Shown here in pieces: positions 9,947 through 17,318 of a DNA stretch of 64,000 bases. Position 1 is the stretch's first letter, and each line of letters starts with the position of its first letter. Source of the DNA: Parcubacteria group bacterium Gr01-1014_13. Lineage in GTDB: Bacteria > Patescibacteriota > Patescibacteriia > Magasanikbacterales > GWA2-37-8. The notes under the pieces are model-generated. The model saw only the letters and a program-made list of their open reading frames with translations, did not search any database and was not told the DNA's origin. The stretch is taken from contig VMGB01000001.1 of the NCBI GenBank assembly GCA_007376295.1, forward strand, positions 349,969 through 413,968, read 5' to 3'. The translations under genes were made by a program, and so were the position numbers.

Positions 9947-12256
9947 ATGGAACCAGCTCTACATTTACATGAATTCTTTGTGGAAGGGAGCAATCCTGAG
10001 ATATCGCACGTGCTCCTAAATATTACTGAACCTTCTACCCCCACCGAAAGGGACAAGGGCTACTTTTTTGCTATCTGCGAAATAAACAATGCCACCACGA
10101 AATATATTGCCAAGATGCAGAACGTGATAGACGAAATAGAAAACAGCTACTACGAAATCCCTGATAAAATAGGACAAACAGCCATGGAGATTGTTCTAGA
10201 TAAAATTAACCAGGAAAGCCTGGCCATGGTGCAACCGGATATTTCCTTGCATTGTATTGTCGGGGCAATACGCCAAAATGATATAATTTTCAGTTTCTAC
10301 GGACAACCACAGATGGTGCTATTCTACAAAGCCAAAGATGACACCTATAAAAAATTAGATTTGGTTGAACAAAATAAATCAAATGAACAAGATGATGAAA
10401 TAGATGGCAAACAAGAAAAAAATCAGTTATTTTCACAGATCGTACAGGGAAAAATCGGACCTAATGATTTTTTCTTTGCGGGTACTGCTCATATTGTAAA
10501 ATATTTCAACCATGACCGATTGCAAAAAATTATCACTACCAGACCGCCCCGCCAAAGCGCAGAGCATCTACAGAGAGTTCTGTCAGAAATCAAAAACAAC
10601 TTATCATTCGGCGGTATAATTATAAATCTACAGCCTGGCCCAGCCGCTCCTGTTTTGATAAAATCATCCCCTGCCAGAAAAGGCGGAGCGGGCCGATCGC
10701 TAAAAAACCTGTTTAGCACCGAAAGAAATACAGCCCACATGCTCTCACCGTCTCTCTTATCCAGATTTGAAGAAGAGACTCCGTCAGCCAAAGAAGACAG
10801 CGCGTTTGCTGGCGGAATGCTTGCAAGCGAAGAAGGTTCGAGATCCAACACCGAGATTACTTCTTCCCATCTTCGCGCCAGAACTGGAAAAATCAAAAAA
10901 GCAGAAGACGATACAAAAGTACAAGATATATTAAAAAAGACAGGGGTAATTATTTGGAAAATGTTAAAATATGCAGCTCGTGGCTTAGTATTGCTACTAC
11001 TGTTTATTAGCACTATAATTTCTACCCTAGGAAGAAATTTCCTTTTGTTATTTTTTATTATTACCAACTACCAAAATAGACGTCATACTATTTTGGCTCA
11101 ATGGGCGAGATGGTGGAAAAATATAAAAGAAAATGCCAAACACCTTCCAGTGGTAACAAAGATATTGCTAGCATTATCTTTGGTTCTGCTCTTGACGTTT
11201 GGCGCTGGGATATTTTATATAGGCGCCAAACAAAAAAAGCAGGCGCGAGCGGCCGCGTACACTAAAGCTGTACAGGATATAAAAACAAAGGAAGACGCCG
11301 CGGAAAGTTCTCTTGTTTATAACGATACCGTAGCCGCACTGGCCAGCATTAAAGAAGCCGAGCAAGTTTTAAAACAATTATCCTGTGTAACAACTTTGGA
11401 AAAATCCACTTGTAAAAATTTACAAGACCGGCTTGATGATTTACAGATGAGAGCGCGCAAAGTTACTTTAGTTCGCCCCACATTACTAGCAAATTGGGAT
11501 AATTTGGGACAAAACATTCAAGTGAATAATGTATTTTTGTTAAGCAATAAAATTTATGGCTTTGGCCAAACTAGCGCTGACATAATAACATATGACCCCT
11601 TGGTAAAAGAATCAAAGGTGGTTTCACCAGGTATATTTGTAGCAAATTTCAATGCCGCTTCTGTACCGAAAGAAAACGATTACGCCGTCTTGTTATACGA
11701 AGGAAAAGATCTTGTCCAGTTTAATCCAAAGGATAATTCCTGGAAAAAAATAGATATTGATTATCCAAATGAAAATGTCAAAATTAGCAGTGTGTCTGTA
11801 TACAATCGTCGTCTATACACTATAGATATTGAAAACAATCAAATCTATAAACACGATGCTATAAAAACAGGTTTCTCTACCGGCAAAGAATGGACAAAGA
11901 ATAATACTAGCGATATAAAAACAGGCGTAGATTTAGCGGTTGATGGTGACGTTTTTGTCCTAGGAAACAACGGCTCTATTTACAAATTTTCCAATGGCAT
12001 AGTGCAGCCATTTGCTATTAGCGGTTTAGAACCGGAGCTTAAATCAGCAGATAAAATTTGGACTTATAATGATTTAAATTATATTTACATTCTAGATACT
12101 GCTGGCAAGAGAATAATTGTGCTGGATAAAACCGGACAACTAAAGAAACAAATTACAGCAACGGAATTCTCCAATCCTACCGGCATGATTATAGATGAAG
12201 AAAAAAGTACTGCCTATATACTCGACAGCAACAAACTATACCAGATTAGTTTATAA
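9947..12256 (+). CDS. large bitopic membrane protein: cytoplasmic N-domain, 2-3 TM helices, extracytoplasmic beta-propeller-like repeats
   Basis: 769 aa. Hydrophobic helices lie around residues 330-420. The C-terminal ~350 aa carry repeated YxxD/YILD-type blades (YTIDIENNQIYKHD, YILDTAGKRIIVLDKTG, YILDSNKLYQISL). The N-domain is unassigned. Confidence 0.45.
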   Translation: MEPALHLHEFFVEGSNPEISHVLLNITEPSTPTERDKGYFFAICEINNATTKYIAKMQNVIDEIENSYYEIPDKIGQTAMEIVLDKINQESLAMVQPDISLHCIVGAIRQNDIIFSFYGQPQMVLFYKAKDDTYKKLDLVEQNKSNEQDDEIDGKQEKNQLFSQIVQGKIGPNDFFFAGTAHIVKYFNHDRLQKIITTRPPRQSAEHLQRVLSEIKNNLSFGGIIINLQPGPAAPVLIKSSPARKGGAGRSLKNLFSTERNTAHMLSPSLLSRFEEETPSAKEDSAFAGGMLASEEGSRSNTEITSSHLRARTGKIKKAEDDTKVQDILKKTGVIIWKMLKYAARGLVLLLLFISTIISTLGRNFLLLFFIITNYQNRRHTILAQWARWWKNIKENAKHLPVVTKILLALSLVLLLTFGAGIFYIGAKQKKQARAAAYTKAVQDIKTKEDAAESSLVYNDTVAALASIKEAEQVLKQLSCVTTLEKSTCKNLQDRLDDLQMRARKVTLVRPTLLANWDNLGQNIQVNNVFLLSNKIYGFGQTSADIITYDPLVKESKVVSPGIFVANFNAASVPKENDYAVLLYEGKDLVQFNPKDNSWKKIDIDYPNENVKISSVSVYNRRLYTIDIENNQIYKHDAIKTGFSTGKEWTKNNTSDIKTGVDLAVDGDVFVLGNNGSIYKFSNGIVQPFAISGLEPELKSADKIWTYNDLNYIYILDTAGKRIIVLDKTGQLKKQITATEFSNPTGMIIDEEKSTAYILDSNKLYQISL

Positions 12257-12260
12257 CAAA

Positions 12261-12285
12261 AAGAGCCCTTCCGGGCTCTTTTTTA
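12261..12285. terminator. bidirectional rho-independent terminator (AGAGCCC-ttcc-GGGCTCT + T-run)
   Basis: Perfect 7-bp stem with U-tracts on both strands, between convergent genes 9947-12256 (+) and rplL (-). Confidence 0.7.
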
Positions 12286-12299
12286 TTTCTAAAAAGTAA

Positions 12300-12704
12300 T
12301 TATTTTAGAGTTACTTTGCCGCCAGCTTCTTCAATCTTCTTTTTCATAGCTTCAGCATCTTCTTTCTTTACGCCTTCTTTAACCATCTTAGGAGCGCCAT
12401 CTACTAAAGCTTTAGCATCTGCCAAACCTAAACCGGTTACTTCTTTTACAGCTTTGATCACATTGATCTTGCTAGCACCGGCATCGGTAAGCTCAACATT
12501 GAACTCAGTTTTTTCCTCAGCGGCAGCAGCTGCGCCTCCGGCAGCTGGAGCAGCCATCATCATGGCTGGAGCAGCGGCAGAAACGCCGAATTTTTCTTCC
12601 AAAACCTTTACCAATTCGGAAAGGTCTAGAACAGACATTTTTTCAACTTCTTCTACAAGGCTTTTAAACTTTGCAGGGACTTCTACTTTATTTTCTTCGG
12701 TCAT
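12300..12704 (-). CDS. rplL: 50S ribosomal protein L7/L12
   Basis: Canonical L12: N-terminal dimerisation region, Ala-rich hinge, C-terminal domain ([24 protein letters not shown]...GGKVTLK). Start taken at the internal ATG (MTEENK), not the longer track ORF. Confidence 0.9.
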
Positions 12705-12714
12705 ATATTTATTA

Positions 12715-13239
12715 TTAAGCTTTTGATTTAGCAATATTATTAAGTACACCTACTAAACCGCGCAAATTTCCAGCCAGTACATTTACGAAACCAGAAACAG
12801 GGCTGTTGAGAGAGCCAACTAATCTGCCTAGCAATTCTTGTTTGCTTGGCAAACTGGCCAAACTCTTTACTGCGGAAACGTCTACGAATTTACCTTCCAA
12901 TACACCACCGAATATTTTTAATATTTCGTGAGTTTTGGCAAAAGTGTTTACTACTCTGGCAGCCGATACTTCGTCTCCCAAAGCCATAAAGGTAGCCACA
13001 CCACCGGCGAAAACCTTTGGATCAATATCTTTTAATCCCACGTCTTCACAAGCGCGCTTTACCAAAGTCTTTTTGGCAGCTACTACTTTAATATCATTTT
13101 TGCGGCATTCGCGTCGCAGTTCTTCTGCTTCAGAAACTTTTAAACCTTGAAAATTGGCAAAAACTACGGCTTTAGCGGCTCGCAGTCCGTCTTCCAAAGA
13201 TTTAATCGTTTCTTGTTTTTGTTGTTTTGATTTAGGCAT
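12715..13239 (-). CDS. rplJ: 50S ribosomal protein L10
   Basis: L10 family ([43 protein letters not shown]...). Start at the ATG at 13237-13239 preferred over the upstream GTG. 10-nt spacer to rplL. Confidence 0.85.
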
Positions 13240-13449
13240 ATAAAATAAAAAATCTGTGTGTTCCACAGAATTCTAGTACAAATCGACCTAACAGGCTAAA
13301 ATTGCCCTTTATTTGCACCTCGGCAGGAAATTAAGTCTTGCGACACCTGCTGTCTATGGTTGAATAGATAATATAATATCTGTGGATAAATGTCAAGGGG
13401 TTGATTTATAATAAAAGGCCGGTAAACATTTATATTTTATCGACCTTAC

Positions 13450-13740
13450 CTAACCCCGAAATTTATAAAATAGCTTCTTTAATTCTATCATCTCATTATG
13501 AAGATCATCACACTCTTCATCGGTAAGTACCGCTACAGCGTCTATATCAGGTACACTCCCTAGAGGAATTGAATCTGTCTTATGCGAACCCAAACGATGG
13601 AGTTTCTTCCAAAATTCGTCTAGTTTTTCCCAAACTAAGAATACTTCCTCATCGCTAATATCCATTTTACATCCCCAAAAACCAGGAAAAATGATCAAAA
13701 ATTCTTCTCTAATCTCTTTAACCGTAGTAGGCATGTTCAC
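13450..13740 (-). CDS. hypothetical small protein
   Basis: 96 aa, host-like composition, no recognisable domain. Confidence 0.35.
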   Translation of the reverse strand: MNMPTTVKEIREEFLIIFPGFWGCKMDISDEEVFLVWEKLDEFWKKLHRLGSHKTDSIPLGSVPDIDAVAVLTDEECDDLHNEMIELKKLFYKFRG

Positions 13741-13819
13741 CTCCTTTGGTTACCAACCCGTAATTGGGTTAACAGACTATACCAGTATAGAACCTCTCTT
13801 GTCAACTGGTACAGAGGGG

Positions 13820-13848
13820 TTGACAAAGACTAGTTTTTATGCTATGAT
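13820..13848 (+). promoter_or_regulatory. sigma70-type promoter (TTGACA-17-TATGAT) for the foreign-GC ORF
   Basis: ggTTGACAaagactagtttttatgcTATGAT; the -35 hexamer is consensus. A strong SD (AAGGGA) lies 6 nt before the ATG at 13900. Confidence 0.55.
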
Positions 13849-13899
13849 GTGACCTACATTTGGTATACCGACCAAAAAACACCAACAGAAAGGGATAAA

Positions 13900-14454
13900 A
13901 TGTCGATGTCGCTTTTGGTCCAGTATGAAGAGGACCTAGAGTCCAAACGGGAAGAAGTCTACTGCCAGCTCAAAAAGCTGGTGAAGAATCTGCCCATGTA
14001 CTTGAGCGCAACCACCAAGAGAGCGCTTCGGATTCACTTCGACAACTTCGACTTCGGGTATCAGTGGACCGAAGACGGCGAAGAGCTGATCCAGAAAGCT
14101 CGCATGGAACAGATGGCGACGGCAGAACGCTGGAAACGCTACGAAGAATTCGAACTGTTTGAAGACGAGCCCTGGATCGATGACCAGACGAAGAAGCTCT
14201 GGGGTTTCGCCGAGTACTGGGAGAACAAATTCGATCAGGAGACCATCAACGCCTGCAGGTTGAAGAAGGATCTCGCCTTTGAGTACGGAAGCATCCTCGT
14301 TCTGGAGAAGGCTTCTGGCAAAACCTACCATCGTAACGGTATCAAGCGCGATAAGACCGAGTTCTGGAACCGTCCCCAGCCGACTAGACGGCGACAGATC
14401 AAACTGCACAAAAAGATGCAGCGACGCCAGAACGACAATCAGCCTCAGGAGTAA
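13900..14454 (+). CDS. hypothetical protein of foreign base composition (acidic N-terminal half, basic C-terminal tail)
   Basis: 184 aa. By eye the coding region is ~50% GC, with CTG/GAG/AAG/CGC-rich codon use, against ~37% GC in its neighbours. Start assigned to the SD-preceded ATG at 13900 (the track ORF starts at 13849). No recognisable family. Confidence 0.55.
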   Translation: MSMSLLVQYEEDLESKREEVYCQLKKLVKNLPMYLSATTKRALRIHFDNFDFGYQWTEDGEELIQKARMEQMATAERWKRYEEFELFEDEPWIDDQTKKLWGFAEYWENKFDQETINACRLKKDLAFEYGSILVLEKASGKTYHRNGIKRDKTEFWNRPQPTRRRQIKLHKKMQRRQNDNQPQE

Positions 14455-14475
14455 CCACAACGGATGCTCCACTCA

Positions 14476-14510
14476 CCCGCCAAGACCACCTAGGTCGAAG
14501 CGGGTTTTTT
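14476..14510 (+). terminator. rho-independent terminator (CCCGC...GCGGG + T6)
   Basis: cCCCGCcaagaccacctaggtcgaaGCGGGtttttt, directly after the stop of the 13900 ORF. Confidence 0.5.
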
Positions 14511-14523
14511 AATTATACCAAGG

Positions 14524-14552
14524 TTGACAAATAGCTCGTTTTATACTATCTT
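14524..14552 (+). promoter_or_regulatory. sigma70-type promoter (TTGACA-17-TATCTT), paralogous to the 13820 promoter
   Basis: ggTTGACAAAtagctcgttttatacTATCTT; the GGTTGACAAA and GTTTTAT.CTAT blocks are shared with the promoter at 13818-13848. SD AAGGAG lies 8 nt before the ATG. Confidence 0.5.
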
Positions 14553-14572
14553 GCCTCACAAGGAGTAACCCA

Positions 14573-14866
14573 ATGGAAAAGACGCCCTATAACCCGGATG
14601 AAGACGAAAATCTCTTTGACAACTCAATGAATGCATTTTGTTTGATCTTGAGACAACTTGTTTCTCGCAACAAAAACCTCCGTAGCCAACTCTCTGATCT
14701 ATCCAGGAAACAAAAAAATGGCATATCTGCTTCCACAAAAAAAGAAATCTATAACCACCTCCTTGAAGATGATATCTGCAATGACGAGTGGTTCCAAGAT
14801 GGCAAGTGCCTACTACTAAAAGCCAAAAAAGAGGCCAAATCAAAAACCAAAAAGAGACGAAAATAA
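14573..14866 (+). CDS. hypothetical small protein with Lys-rich C-terminus
   Basis: 97 aa, host-like GC, perfect SD (AAGGAGT). C-terminal tail KAKKEAKSKTKKRRK. Confidence 0.45.
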   Translation: MEKTPYNPDEDENLFDNSMNAFCLILRQLVSRNKNLRSQLSDLSRKQKNGISASTKKEIYNHLLEDDICNDEWFQDGKCLLLKAKKEAKSKTKKRRK

Positions 14867-14875
14867 TGGCACGCG

Positions 14876-14906
14876 CCCGCCAACTGCAAAGTTTAGCGGG
14901 TTTTTT
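14876..14906 (+). terminator. rho-independent terminator (CCCGC...GCGGG + T6), paralogous to the 14476 terminator
   Basis: gCCCGCcaactgcaaagtttaGCGGGtttttt shares CCCGCCAA and AGCGGGTTTTTTA with the terminator at 14476-14510. Confidence 0.45.
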
Positions 14907-15447
14907 ATTTTCTACCAAGAAGTCTTGCCAAAAAACCTGGTTTTTTAAATTCTAAAGGTTTAACTATCATTGTTTTGTTTGCGTCTCCTGATTGGCTGTG
15001 TTTAAGATTTTCAAGCTTCTCCTCAAGATCTCTTAATCTTTCAACCGCATCTGTATCGCCATAATTTTGCTCAACATCAAAGCGAGCGCCATCTATTTGT
15101 TTTTCCAATTCGTCATAAGCAGAGATATTCTCTCTGACCAAACGAGCTTCTTCACCCATTAAATTCATTACCGGATTGGTTGATCTTGCTTTCGCTTGAT
15201 CAAACTCTACATCTGTAATTTGCTGACGCAAAATTGCCAATTCATCTTTGTCATCTTGGGTTAACTGCTCCCCTTTTCTCAATACTGGCTTTGACTCTTC
15301 TGCCTTTCTCTTAAACTCCTCAGCTTTTCTTTGTATCTCCGCAGTTTCCTCCGGAGAAAAAATTACAGCGTTGAATCGTTCTCGTTTTTTTGCTCCAAAC
15401 CCATAATTTGTTTCTGCCGGAATAAATTTTGGTTGTTTGTCGGCCAT
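14905..15447 (-). CDS. hypothetical coiled-coil protein
   Basis: 180 aa, highly charged with heptad-like pattern (EEFKRKAEESK, LRDLEEKLENLKH). No domain assignment. Confidence 0.4.
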   Translation of the reverse strand: MADKQPKFIPAETNYGFGAKKRERFNAVIFSPEETAEIQRKAEEFKRKAEESKPVLRKGEQLTQDDKDELAILRQQITDVEFDQAKARSTNPVMNLMGEEARLVRENISAYDELEKQIDGARFDVEQNYGDTDAVERLRDLEEKLENLKHSQSGDANKTMIVKPLEFKKPGFLARLLGRK

Positions 15448-15454
15448 ATAATAT

Positions 15455-16144
15455 TTATTTAATTAAACTGCCTTGGTATGTCTTACCATCTAAGACGTCT
15501 TTCAGTCCGGACAGGTCTGTACCTTTAGCAAACTTTACCGTTAAACCCAATTTTTGCGCTGTTTTGGCTGCTACCGGATCAAAAGGAAGGTTCGCCCCTG
15601 GAATCCATTTGTCCCCTACAATTTTTCGCAGTTCGTCCCAAGTTAAATTTTCCATTTTCTTTGCTTGGGAATTTTCGCGCGGATCAGCATCATAGATATA
15701 ATCTATATTGGAAAGATTAATTACTTCTTGGGCGCCATAAGTTTTGGCCAATAAAACGGCATCGTAGTCAGTGGAACAGCCGGGCTTCCAACCACCAGCT
15801 ACCAGGATAGATTTTCTTGATCTTACTTTTTTAGTCGGATTAACAATTAACTCCGGATCCGCCCTACCATTAAATAACAAACCAACAAATCTGGCATTAA
15901 AATGCGTAGCGTAAATTCCCAACCAATCCAGATCAATATCAGTAACATTGGCTGATTCTTTGGCTGCTTTCTGGTATTTGCGGCAAGTAGACCCACCGCC
16001 AATTACCAAAATAAATTTTTCCCCCACTTCAACTCTCTTTAAAATTAATTCTCTAAACTTTTTTAAAAATTCAATGTTAAATCCTTCCGGTGGAATTACG
16101 ATAGACCCTCCCAACGATATAATCCGGTATTGATTTTTCGGCAT
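15455..16144 (-). CDS. pyrH: UMP kinase homologue (amino-acid-kinase fold, archaeal-type)
   Basis: 229 aa. The RIISLGGSIV...VIGGGSTCRKY and VAGGWKPGCSTD motifs resemble the short archaeal-type PyrH rather than the bacterial long form. Confidence 0.65.
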   Translation of the reverse strand: MPKNQYRIISLGGSIVIPPEGFNIEFLKKFRELILKRVEVGEKFILVIGGGSTCRKYQKAAKESANVTDIDLDWLGIYATHFNARFVGLLFNGRADPELIVNPTKKVRSRKSILVAGGWKPGCSTDYDAVLLAKTYGAQEVINLSNIDYIYDADPRENSQAKKMENLTWDELRKIVGDKWIPGANLPFDPVAAKTAQKLGLTVKFAKGTDLSGLKDVLDGKTYQGSLIK

Positions 16145-16150
16145 AACTTA

Positions 16151-16315
16151 TTAAAATTGATTTGCTTTAAAATTATGGGTCTGTGATTTATGATTCTTCC
16201 CCATAGCTCCTTTTAACTTATTAGGCGAATACATGGATTTGTTTGCCTTAAAAGTACTTGGCGTTCTATATCCTGTCTTGCCCTTTTGAGCTCTGTTGGA
16301 AGAATAATTTTTCAT
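16151..16315 (-). CDS. possible small basic protein (54 aa), missing from the ORF track
   Basis: MKNYSSNRAQKGKTGYRTPSTFKANKSMYSPNKLKGAMGKNHKSQTHNFKANQF. Starts 4 nt after the stop of the upstream membrane-protein gene and fills an otherwise empty 170-nt gap. No SD. Confidence 0.25.
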   Translation of the reverse strand: MKNYSSNRAQKGKTGYRTPSTFKANKSMYSPNKLKGAMGKNHKSQTHNFKANQF

Positions 16316-16318
16316 AAT

Positions 16319-16657
16319 TTATTCTTTTGATAAAGAATTAACTGCCCAACTGATAAGCCACATAGCCAACGCCCCCCAAAAAGCTGGCCAAAATCCAGCT
16401 ACAAAAAATCCTTTAACTACAGAAGCTGCGAGCCAGAACATCAGAGCGTTTATTACTAAAGTAAAAAGACCTAGGGTGAATATGTTTATAGGCAAAGTTA
16501 AAACAAGAAGAATCGGACGAATAAGAGCATTTATAAGCCCCAGTATTAAAGCGGCCACAAGCGCGGAATAAAAACTTACTACCGTTATGCCAGGAATATA
16601 ATATGCAATCAGAATCAAGGCTAAAGCGCTAAGCAACCAACGAACTAATAACTTCAT
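16319..16657 (-). CDS. small 4-TM membrane protein (phage-holin-4 / YvlD-like)
   Basis: 112 aa, four hydrophobic helices. Overall resemblance to the holin superfamily IV / DUF360 membrane proteins. Confidence 0.45.
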   Translation of the reverse strand: MKLLVRWLLSALALILIAYYIPGITVVSFYSALVAALILGLINALIRPILLVLTLPINIFTLGLFTLVINALMFWLAASVVKGFFVAGFWPAFWGALAMWLISWAVNSLSKE

Positions 16658-17289: not shown

Positions 17290-17318
17290 TTGACAAAACT
17301 TAGGGATTAAAGTATAAT
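17290..17318 (+). promoter_or_regulatory. sigma70-type promoter for rpmB (TTGACA-17-TATAAT)
   Basis: aTTGACAaaacttagggattaaagTATAATtat. Confidence 0.55.

Follow-up and report, generated by a model that had tools for sequence, protein, structure and literature searches.

The stretch of DNA considered here (the window, 64,000 nt, with positions counted from its first letter) lies on a 495-kb contig of the metagenome-assembled genome (MAG) Parcubacteria group bacterium Gr01-1014_13, a groundwater bacterium of the candidate phyla radiation (CPR). Between its rplJ-rplL operon and a converging pyrH-like amino-acid-kinase gene (PF00696) stand two small open reading frames (ORFs), ORF1 (G01um101413_371) and ORF2 (G01um101413_372), each preceded by a predicted promoter (P1 or P2) and followed by a predicted terminator (T1 or T2). 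The order promoter-ORF-terminator occurs twice on the + strand, with the promoters 704 nt and the terminators 400 nt apart. A first-pass annotation of this sequence had described the two ORFs as unrelated cargo framed by repeated expression signals, in the manner of gene cassettes or duplicated modules. The observation of repeated signals is real, the reading of unrelated cargo in cassettes is not supported, and the pair consists of deeply diverged tandem paralogues. The parts of the two units are listed below; L-numbers denote related loci or metagenome/assembly contigs (L002 being the same genome), and P-numbers denote proteins of the family.

13818..13848, + strand: promoter P1 of ORF1 (11/12 consensus match, with TG)
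13900..14454, + strand: ORF1, 184 aa, long (A) form, with orthologues at the same locus in L001, L066, L004 and L006
14475..14510, + strand: terminator T1, a two-tier hairpin followed by U6 (-17.4 kcal/mol, z -4.5)
14511..14523, + strand: T1-P2 junction AATTATACCAAGG, read directly from the sequence and also present in the repeat search
14522..14552, + strand: promoter P2 of ORF2 (10/12 consensus match; 21/28 identity to P1)
14560..14565, + strand: Shine-Dalgarno sequence AAGGAG, 7 nt before the ORF2 start codon, read from the sequence
14573..14866, + strand: ORF2, 97 aa, short (B) form, assigned by homology to ORF1 and the long forms
14875..14906, + strand: terminator T2, a hairpin followed by U6 (-13.1 kcal/mol, z -1.05), which matches the terminator pattern and aligns with the family terminators

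Relationship of the two proteins and of their signals

The proteins encoded by ORF1 and ORF2, earlier said to share no similarity, are related over about 80 residues, with ORF2 residues 18-97 aligning to the N-terminal three-helix domain of ORF1. BLASTP finds 27% identity between residues 2-64 of ORF1 and 18-81 of ORF2 (E 0.001), the Smith-Waterman score of 68 exceeds that of shuffled sequences (30.1 +/- 4.9; z 7.8, 0/2000), and hhalign gives an E value of 3.8e-5. The independent orthologue P0002 is matched by ORF2 with a Smith-Waterman score of 77 (29.4 +/- 4.5 in shuffles, z 10.5), and tblastn with ORF2 reaches the long-form gene of L004 at E 4e-5. A hidden Markov model (HMM) built from the long forms of other genomes, with ORF1 and ORF2 left out, recovers ORF2 (E 2.6e-9) from ~4,450 ORFs, and up to E 10 it picks up no false positive. 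The identities of ORF2 sit on columns that are invariant between ORF1 and P0002, namely Q23, L24, L27, S36, T39, K40, H46, W56, D59, G60, L63, K66, A67 and E70. Judged from these alignments, ORF1 and ORF2 are homologous, and ORF2 is a truncated, diverged paralogue of ORF1; this homology explains the repeated signals by the copying of a whole transcription unit.

In ORF1, whose start at 13900 (MSMSLL) agrees with its homologues, the N-terminal three-helix domain (~2-77) leads into a middle part that is acidic and rich in Trp, and the C-terminal part carries the basic motif HRxGxKRDKTEFWNRPQPTRR...QPQE. ORF2 begins with an N-extension of 17 aa, continues with the family N-domain (18-88) and ends in a Lys/Arg tail; it has neither the acidic middle nor the C-terminal motif. 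Compared with P0014, ORF2 shows a ratio of nonsynonymous to synonymous substitution rates (dN/dS) of 0.39, indicating purifying selection, which together with its strong Shine-Dalgarno site marks it as a live gene. The sharp difference in base composition noted earlier between the two ORFs also holds, the G+C content at third codon positions (GC3) being 0.72 in ORF1 and 0.43 in ORF2.

In front of the ORFs, as first reported, stand two exact copies of the 10-mer GGTTGACAAA, at 13818 and 14522, and the 64 kb contain no third. P1 contains a -35 box TTGACA (13820-13825), a 17-nt spacer, an extended -10 TG (13840-13841) and a -10 box TATGAT (13843-13848), with GG and GTACAGAGGG upstream; P2 contains TTGACA (14524-14529), a 17-nt spacer and a -10 box TATCTT (14547-14552), without the extended -10 TG. 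Both follow the sigma-70-type layout, with hexamers 17 +/- 1 nt apart upstream of an ORF, and are predicted promoters, of which P2 is probably the weaker because of its poorer -10 box and missing TG. The spacer pattern GG...AA...GTTTT(T)AT.CTAT is common to P1 and P2 and appears in no other promoter of the window.

Behind the ORFs, the pattern CCCGCCAA-N(8-30)-AGCGGGTTTTTT is found only at 14476-14510 and 14876-14906 in the window, in both cases as a hairpin with a U-tract, and 100 shuffles yielded 0 matches. T1 is formed by the outer stem ACCCGC/GCGGGU and the inner stem GACC/GGUC, and T2 by the outer stem CCCGCC/GCGGG and the inner stem AACU/AGUU; both fit predicted intrinsic (Rho-independent) terminators, with GC-rich hairpins and U6 located 21 and 9 nt past the stop codons. 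The resemblance extends beyond the functional parts, with CAC.C.CCCGCCAA upstream and TTTTTTA..T.TACCAAG downstream, and this 3' similarity is a stronger signal than the 5' similarity.

The signals recur at the loci of other family genes. The promoter of P0014, ctGTACAGAGGGTTGACAAAagtgtgaTTTTGTGCTATATT (L063-65), is the same module as P1, including the upstream GTACAGAGGG, and its left flank, GTACAGAGGGTTGACAAA, is of the P1 type; close P1-type versions precede the family genes of L067 (GGGGTTGACAAAtgaatGTTTTTATGGTAT) and L006 (TTGACAAAacacctATTTTGTGCTAT). One terminator design, consisting of CCGCC, aa/cc, GACC, a loop, GGTC, a short spacer, GGCGG and a U-tract, stands behind the family genes in L001, L066, L004 and L067, and is degenerate in L064; the 5' arm of T1 is identical to that of L001 and near-identical to that of L066. 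Across ~700 kb, made up of the window plus related loci, the P1-type promoter motif is restricted to the rplJ/pyrH-like locus and this terminator type is found behind family genes only, the other terminators of the window being unlike T1 and T2. The motifs are thus no general consensus within this sample, and the earlier judgement that the 3' similarity is hard to explain by consensus is borne out. Promoter and terminator signals have been inherited with the gene, and the modules are conserved across family loci.

The protein family and the gap it occupies

A HMMER pass over 1.84 billion representatives defined a family of 12 proteins. The long (A) forms are ORF1, P0002, P0004, P0005, P0006, P0007 and P0008, with the more distant P0011 and P0013. 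The B forms, with their N-extension, comprise the full-length P0009, the truncated P0012 and P0014, which at 115 aa resembles ORF2 in build. The nearest relative of ORF2 is P0014 (Smith-Waterman 179, z 29), followed by P0012, P0009 and then the long forms. The same 1.84 billion representatives contain no homologue outside the clade, and viral contigs contain no family copy. P0010, a repetitive eukaryote-like sequence of 5774 aa with 19 profile matches (summed E 8e-12), was treated as spurious; composition or helical repeats most likely account for these matches. For P0012 (L067 130-570) and P0009, the N-termini given in the database are over-called, and the TTG annotated as the start of P0012 falls within the -35 box. 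Translation most likely begins at MKRLEDD... in P0012 and at MERLEDT... in P0009.

ORF1, ORF2 and the two neighbouring ORFs described below (orf96 and c180) have no meaningful match in Pfam, PHROGs, PADLOC, NCBIfam or PDB sequences. An AlphaFold2 model of ORF1 from a 13-sequence alignment shows a confident three-helix N-domain, with a predicted local distance difference test (pLDDT) score >90 for residues 10-75, and Foldseek returned nothing significant in PDB or BFVD. The family is an undescribed orphan that is fast evolving, dispensable, lineage-restricted and fixed to one locus. As a low-confidence guess, its members could be accessory interaction or conflict proteins, and ORF2 might pair with ORF1 through the shared N-domain.

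For comparison, 60 related loci were fetched through rplJ, all from Magasanikbacteria-type CPR genomes, in which the gap between rplJ and the pyrH-like gene ranges from ~200 to ~2,400 nt. Among these loci, only L004 (with the same protein as P0005) and L006 carry family genes; further family genes lie on the metagenome/assembly contigs L001 (P0002), L066 (P0004), L063-65 (P0014) and L067 (P0012). Wherever the context is readable, the family gene occupies the rplJ/pyrH-like gap in the same orientation. The content of the gap differs among relatives, which have an empty gap, a long form, a short form or other genes, and in the close relatives L003 and L005 it is empty but for the L10 leader. Conserved presence of the same two genes in relatives, which had been proposed as grounds against the cassette reading, was not observed, since the gap is variable and no relative has both. 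The window holds no family copies besides these two, protein searches returned just ORF1 and ORF2 as family proteins of the source genome, and a scan of metagenomes for further family loci gave, among the matches listed, only a duplicate of L006.

The coding part of the family evolves 3-10 times faster than its neighbours. Between the window and L001, amino-acid identity is 57% for the family gene, 93-96% for rplJ/rplL and 79% for a 769-aa neighbour; the nonsynonymous rate dN is 0.27-0.66 for the family and 0.02-0.19 for neighbours, and omega is 0.26-0.46 and 0.03-0.13, respectively. Because the signals are conserved at all family loci while the coding part changes at this rate, the signals look more alike than the ORFs. 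The sisters L004 and L067 illustrate this contrast, with pyrH-like proteins 91% identical, terminators matching at 37/40 nt and family genes (A-type vs B-type) only 33% identical, at a dN of 0.66 for the family vs 0.06 for neighbours; A- and B-type cores have accordingly been differentially lost or swapped between conserved flanks.

Base composition also sets the long forms apart. The G+C content of ORF1 is 0.51-0.54 vs ~0.38, and its GC3 of 0.72 compares with 0.30-0.33 in rplJ/rplL. Long forms keep a GC3 of 0.72-0.83 in five lineages (the window, L001 2643-3176, L066 6001-6534, L004 and L006) at pairwise synonymous distances (dS) of 0.8-1.5, where the genomic GC3 around them is ~0.3-0.45 and that of nearby ribosomal protein genes 0.30-0.43, while the short forms ORF2 and P0014 stand at 0.43. 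Locus-specific recombination, GC-biased conversion or selection on mRNA may account for the excess. An overlapping antisense gene (13936-14472, - strand, 178 aa) was considered as its cause and rejected, the frame being interrupted in L066 and L004; it is codon-aligned with ORF1, almost all of which it spans, and stays open only through the rarity of TTA, CTA and TCA codons, and substitutions among ORF1 orthologues peak at the third position of sense codons. Expression-type codon bias was rejected on account of the low GC3 of rplJ/rplL, and recent horizontal transfer from a GC-rich donor is unlikely, given that the GC3 is kept across five lineages and that the searches outside the clade and in viral contigs gave no homologues.

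Several other observations concern the gap in relatives. In more distant relatives, the same locus-specific outward promoter, TTGACAAA...TTTT(T)RTGSTAT, stands before unrelated genes rich in GC3: L014 has a cold-shock-domain (CSD) protein there (GC3 0.78), L024 and L027 a small membrane protein (GC3 0.66-0.69). These genes end in different terminators. In L030, a Cys-rich secreted-looking protein has a looser version of the promoter only, the strict motif being unmatched. The gaps of L024 (gap coordinates 1257-1931, - strand) and L027 (1033-1575, - strand) also hold a 180-224-aa gene with a GC3 of 0.91-0.98 and no Pfam match, which is clearly foreign DNA in genomes of ~46% GC, and the gap of L022 contains a Band_7/SPFH gene with a GC3 of 0.83. 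In the organism that carries P0014, the rplJ side of the locus is taken by the gene of an rve-family transposase (L065 73-966; 5' ends of L063 and L064), whose end lies ~20 nt before the P0014 promoter.

The features that border the two units in the window are as follows.

13238..13377, - strand: ribosomal protein L10 leader (Rfam RF00557, 72.8 bits, E 8e-11), the left anchor of the variable locus
13396..13368, - strand: rplJ promoter, from a promoter consensus scan
13450..13740, - strand: orf96, an acidic 96-aa ORF between the rplJ promoter and P1, part of the context and outside the duplicated unit
13776..13805, - strand: divergent promoter of orf96, near-consensus TTGACA-18 nt-TATAGT with TG, from a consensus scan
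14905..15447, - strand: c180, a converging 180-aa coiled-coil ORF with weak homologues in L001, the right border of the duplicated region

Within 12000-16500, the L10 leader is the sole Rfam match. orf96 has no homologue in the 60 related loci and no family match, and has the look of an insertion, specific to this lineage, that came between the rplJ promoter and P1; the -35 box of its promoter forms an inverted repeat with that of P1. In genomes without orf96 (L001 2549-2562 and the equivalents in L004 and L066), a palindromic -35 pair, TTGACAATTGTCAA, is common to the ORF1-type and rplJ promoters, and the accessory gene and the L10 operon are therefore predicted to be driven there from overlapping divergent promoters. 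Counterparts of c180 occur only in L001 (190 aa, 28-39% identity) and L066 (174 aa, by position). This ORF evolves very fast, its stop codon overlaps the U-tract of T2, and a second small hairpin at 14882..14867 (- strand) could terminate it.

Origin of the pair

ORF1 and ORF2 are very probably two head-to-tail copies of one ancestral monocistronic unit that consisted of a sigma-70-type promoter, a Shine-Dalgarno sequence, an ORF and an intrinsic terminator. The unit would have been duplicated in tandem, the copied segment running from about GTTGACAAA to just beyond the terminator, and the duplication would have left a joint at 14516-14531, where ...TACCAAG is followed directly by GTTGACAAA. 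The copies may then have diverged strongly, with ORF1 keeping the long (A) architecture and ORF2, of the N-extended B lineage, losing the acidic middle and the basic C-terminal motif while retaining the N-domain plus the Lys/Arg tail. Going by their consensus signals, ORF1 and ORF2 would be transcribed separately as autonomous monocistronic transcripts: P1, near-consensus and with an extended -10, would be followed by T1, which would halt the ORF1 transcript and insulate ORF2; P2 would re-initiate transcription 12 nt beyond T1, and T2 would end the second transcript against the converging c180. The repeated modules would ease the loss of either copy by recombination, which could leave relatives with the long form only, the short form only or neither.

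The heptamer at the proposed joint may be a trace of this event. TACCAAG stands at 14516-14522 after T1 and recurs at 14913-14919 after T2 at the same offset, with an estimated chance of ~0.002-0.005; after T2 it is also the reverse complement of the last codons of c180. As a 7-mer only, the repeat is merely suggestive of an end-to-start joint of two units.

Several findings weigh against a tandem duplication. Identity between ORF1 and ORF2 is as low as ~27% over ~80 residues, with a codon-aligned nucleotide identity of 40%, and ORF2 is closer to P0014, P0012 and P0009 of other genomes than to ORF1. The GC3 gap of 0.72 vs 0.43 is unexplained by simple in-place duplication. Both forms occur together only in the source genome and in no other sampled genome, so that an old tandem pair needs many independent losses. 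Outside the hexamers, P1 and P2 share 18/41 positions, which makes them the best of 36 promoter pairs in the window at a z of only 2.4; the promoter blocks are indeed similar, as claimed, yet this similarity within the window is not compelling alone, and it is the comparative data that carry the 5' case. Covariation in the terminators is minimal, with one compensatory pair in seven aligned family terminators, and the promoters, transcription starts and terminators are predicted assignments. With ORF2 nearer to the B forms of other genomes, the two forms must have separated long ago, unless the second unit came in from outside. Recombination between the repeated modules may have cut down an ancestral A+B tandem time and again, or this lineage may have captured a B unit from a relative.

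Capture of an allele is the chief rival to tandem duplication within the genome, though an unlikely one. Under this explanation, A and B are old alternative alleles kept apart by diversifying selection while their flanks recombine, and a B unit from a related strain joined the resident A through the shared modules, giving a homologous but xenologous pair. The affinity of ORF2 to P0014, P0012 and P0009 rather than to ORF1 speaks for it, as do the 33% identical A-type and B-type genes of the sisters L004 and L067 between conserved flanks, the P1-type left flank of P0014, the different GC3 of the two forms and their joint presence in the source genome only. However, an ancestral A+B tandem that lost one or the other member in different lineages would give this pattern too, and deletions of that kind are helped by the modules being present as direct repeats. 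The occurrence of TACCAAG after both T1 and T2 in the same genome resembles an internal end-to-start joint, and no donor, recombination tract or second A+B genome was found, the metagenome scan having shown nothing new among the matches listed.

A broader and decidedly speculative idea, which we rate below allele capture, is that the gap acts as a dedicated expression slot of Magasanikbacteria-type CPR genomes. In such a slot, a locus-specific strong outward promoter, plus the family terminator, would be kept, while a GC3-rich core would be diversified or swapped at at least 10 times the rate of its neighbours, as A and B forms among sisters and as unrelated genes farther away; the process would be driven by recombination, perhaps with GC-biased gene conversion, the product would be an orphan interaction protein of an episymbiont, and ORF1 and ORF2 would represent a two-allele intermediate caught in the act.

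It is very improbable that the two sets of signals arose without common ancestry, by convergence on the strong-promoter and terminator consensus of the organism. The first-pass annotation had cautioned that part of the 5' similarity may reflect such a consensus, and within the window this was justified: TTGACA(AA) also occurs at other strong promoters, e.g. at 17290 (rpmB) and 32779 (lipoprotein), P1/P2 barely exceed the next promoter pairs, which share 17 and 16 of 41 non-hexamer positions, and CCCGC...GCGGG-U6 is a generic terminator design. The caution does not extend to the ~700 kb, where the motif is confined to the locus. The spacer shared by P1 and P2 is unique in the window, the other terminators differ, shuffling gives no match, and the similarity runs past the functional parts; moreover, the ORFs between the signals are homologous and collinear, and orthologous loci show the same modules by descent. 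Since, in those ~700 kb, the promoter motif occurs only at this locus and the terminator only behind family genes, convergence on a consensus is rejected.

Marginally weaker still is the case for mobile gene cassettes, integron-like or other, in which the modules would serve as adaptors for unrelated exchangeable ORFs. It can draw on the repeated 5' and 3' modules, the variable content of the locus among relatives, the locus-specific promoter before unrelated genes in L014, L024 and L027, and the rve transposase abutting the P0014 promoter in L065. Against this stand the homology of ORF1 and ORF2, the lack of any further copy of the modules in the window, their restriction in relatives to the rplJ/pyrH-like locus, a terminator module that unrelated cargo does not share, and the absence of copies from viral contigs. 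The hairpins end in U-tracts as terminators do and have no attC cores (RYYYAAC/GTTRRRY): GTTGACA, which comes after T1, does not fit GTTRRRY, and T2 is followed by no site of this kind. No integrase or recombinase was found among the genes around the locus (L002) or within +/-6 kb in L066, which are housekeeping genes or have no known function, the rest of the window not having been scanned protein by protein. Of the original reading in terms of cassettes or duplicated modules, the duplication of the signals survives, as they are homologous copies; the cassettes do not, the cargo being related and attC sites, further window copies and, around the locus, an integrase being absent. A dispersed intergenic repeat, similar to repetitive extragenic palindromes (REP) or miniature inverted-repeat transposable elements (MITE), was rejected on finding two copies in 64 kb and one locus in ~700 kb, and a type II toxin-antitoxin pair on account of the separate promoters and terminators, the homologous proteins and the lack of a Pfam, NCBIfam or PADLOC match.

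The interpretation as tandem paralogues removes a false lead, in that no new cassette or recombination system exists at the locus, and it illustrates that small ORFs which seem unrelated may, when look-alike signals flank them, prove to be paralogues that have diverged deeply. A new orphan family is defined as well, which occurs in long and short forms, is marked by a three-helix N-domain and the basic motif HRAGxKRDKTExWxRPxPTRR, and is confined, within a small CPR clade, to a single variable locus next to the L10 operon. Two features stand out, namely that the signals are better conserved than the coding core between them and that the excess of GC3 has lasted over long divergence, and the locus provides a compact natural test case for accessory-gene turnover and odd codon usage in reduced episymbiont genomes. 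In addition, its predicted signals offer two candidate portable promoter/terminator pairs for CPR genetics.

Comparison with known systems

The integron, to whose gene cassettes the locus bears an outward likeness, also places short ORFs in series, with an imperfect hairpin after each and a content that varies among relatives. Integron cassettes are usually promoterless. The units described here have their own promoters, their hairpins are terminators, their ORFs are homologous, and no IntI, attI or attC core was found at the locus.

Phage morons, a concept associated with Hendrix and Juhala, are autonomous promoter-ORF-terminator units of deviant composition inserted between conserved genes. 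ORF1 and ORF2 resemble them in that each forms a unit with its own sigma-70-type promoter and terminator, that the composition of ORF1 is unlike that of its neighbours, and that presence and absence alternate between conserved genes. Unlike morons, they are chromosomal and stand beside rplJ in a CPR bacterium, with no prophage and no viral-contig copy; the family keeps to one fixed locus, and its GC3 excess has been maintained over long divergence without fresh import.

Hypervariable allelic loci with conserved flanks, such as those of the pherotype or immunity type, are under diversifying selection and provide a further analogy. Conserved flanking signals, a diverged core, different forms in the sisters L004 and L067 and variable presence are common to both, whereas no partner gene (receptor, toxin or immunity) was identified here and the gene-wide dN/dS is <1.

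Tandem duplicated paralogues differ from the pair in some respects, since the divergence of ORF1 and ORF2 is extreme (~27%) although their signals are recognisable, and the copies differ in codon composition. The two copies are not mutual closest relatives, as a recent origin within the genome would have them, and with the nearest relative of ORF2 in other genomes the pair may be old or partly xenologous. The correspondence is otherwise close, comprising head-to-tail copies on the same strand, collinear homology from promoter through ORF to terminator, the shortening of one copy, and repeats that permit loss.

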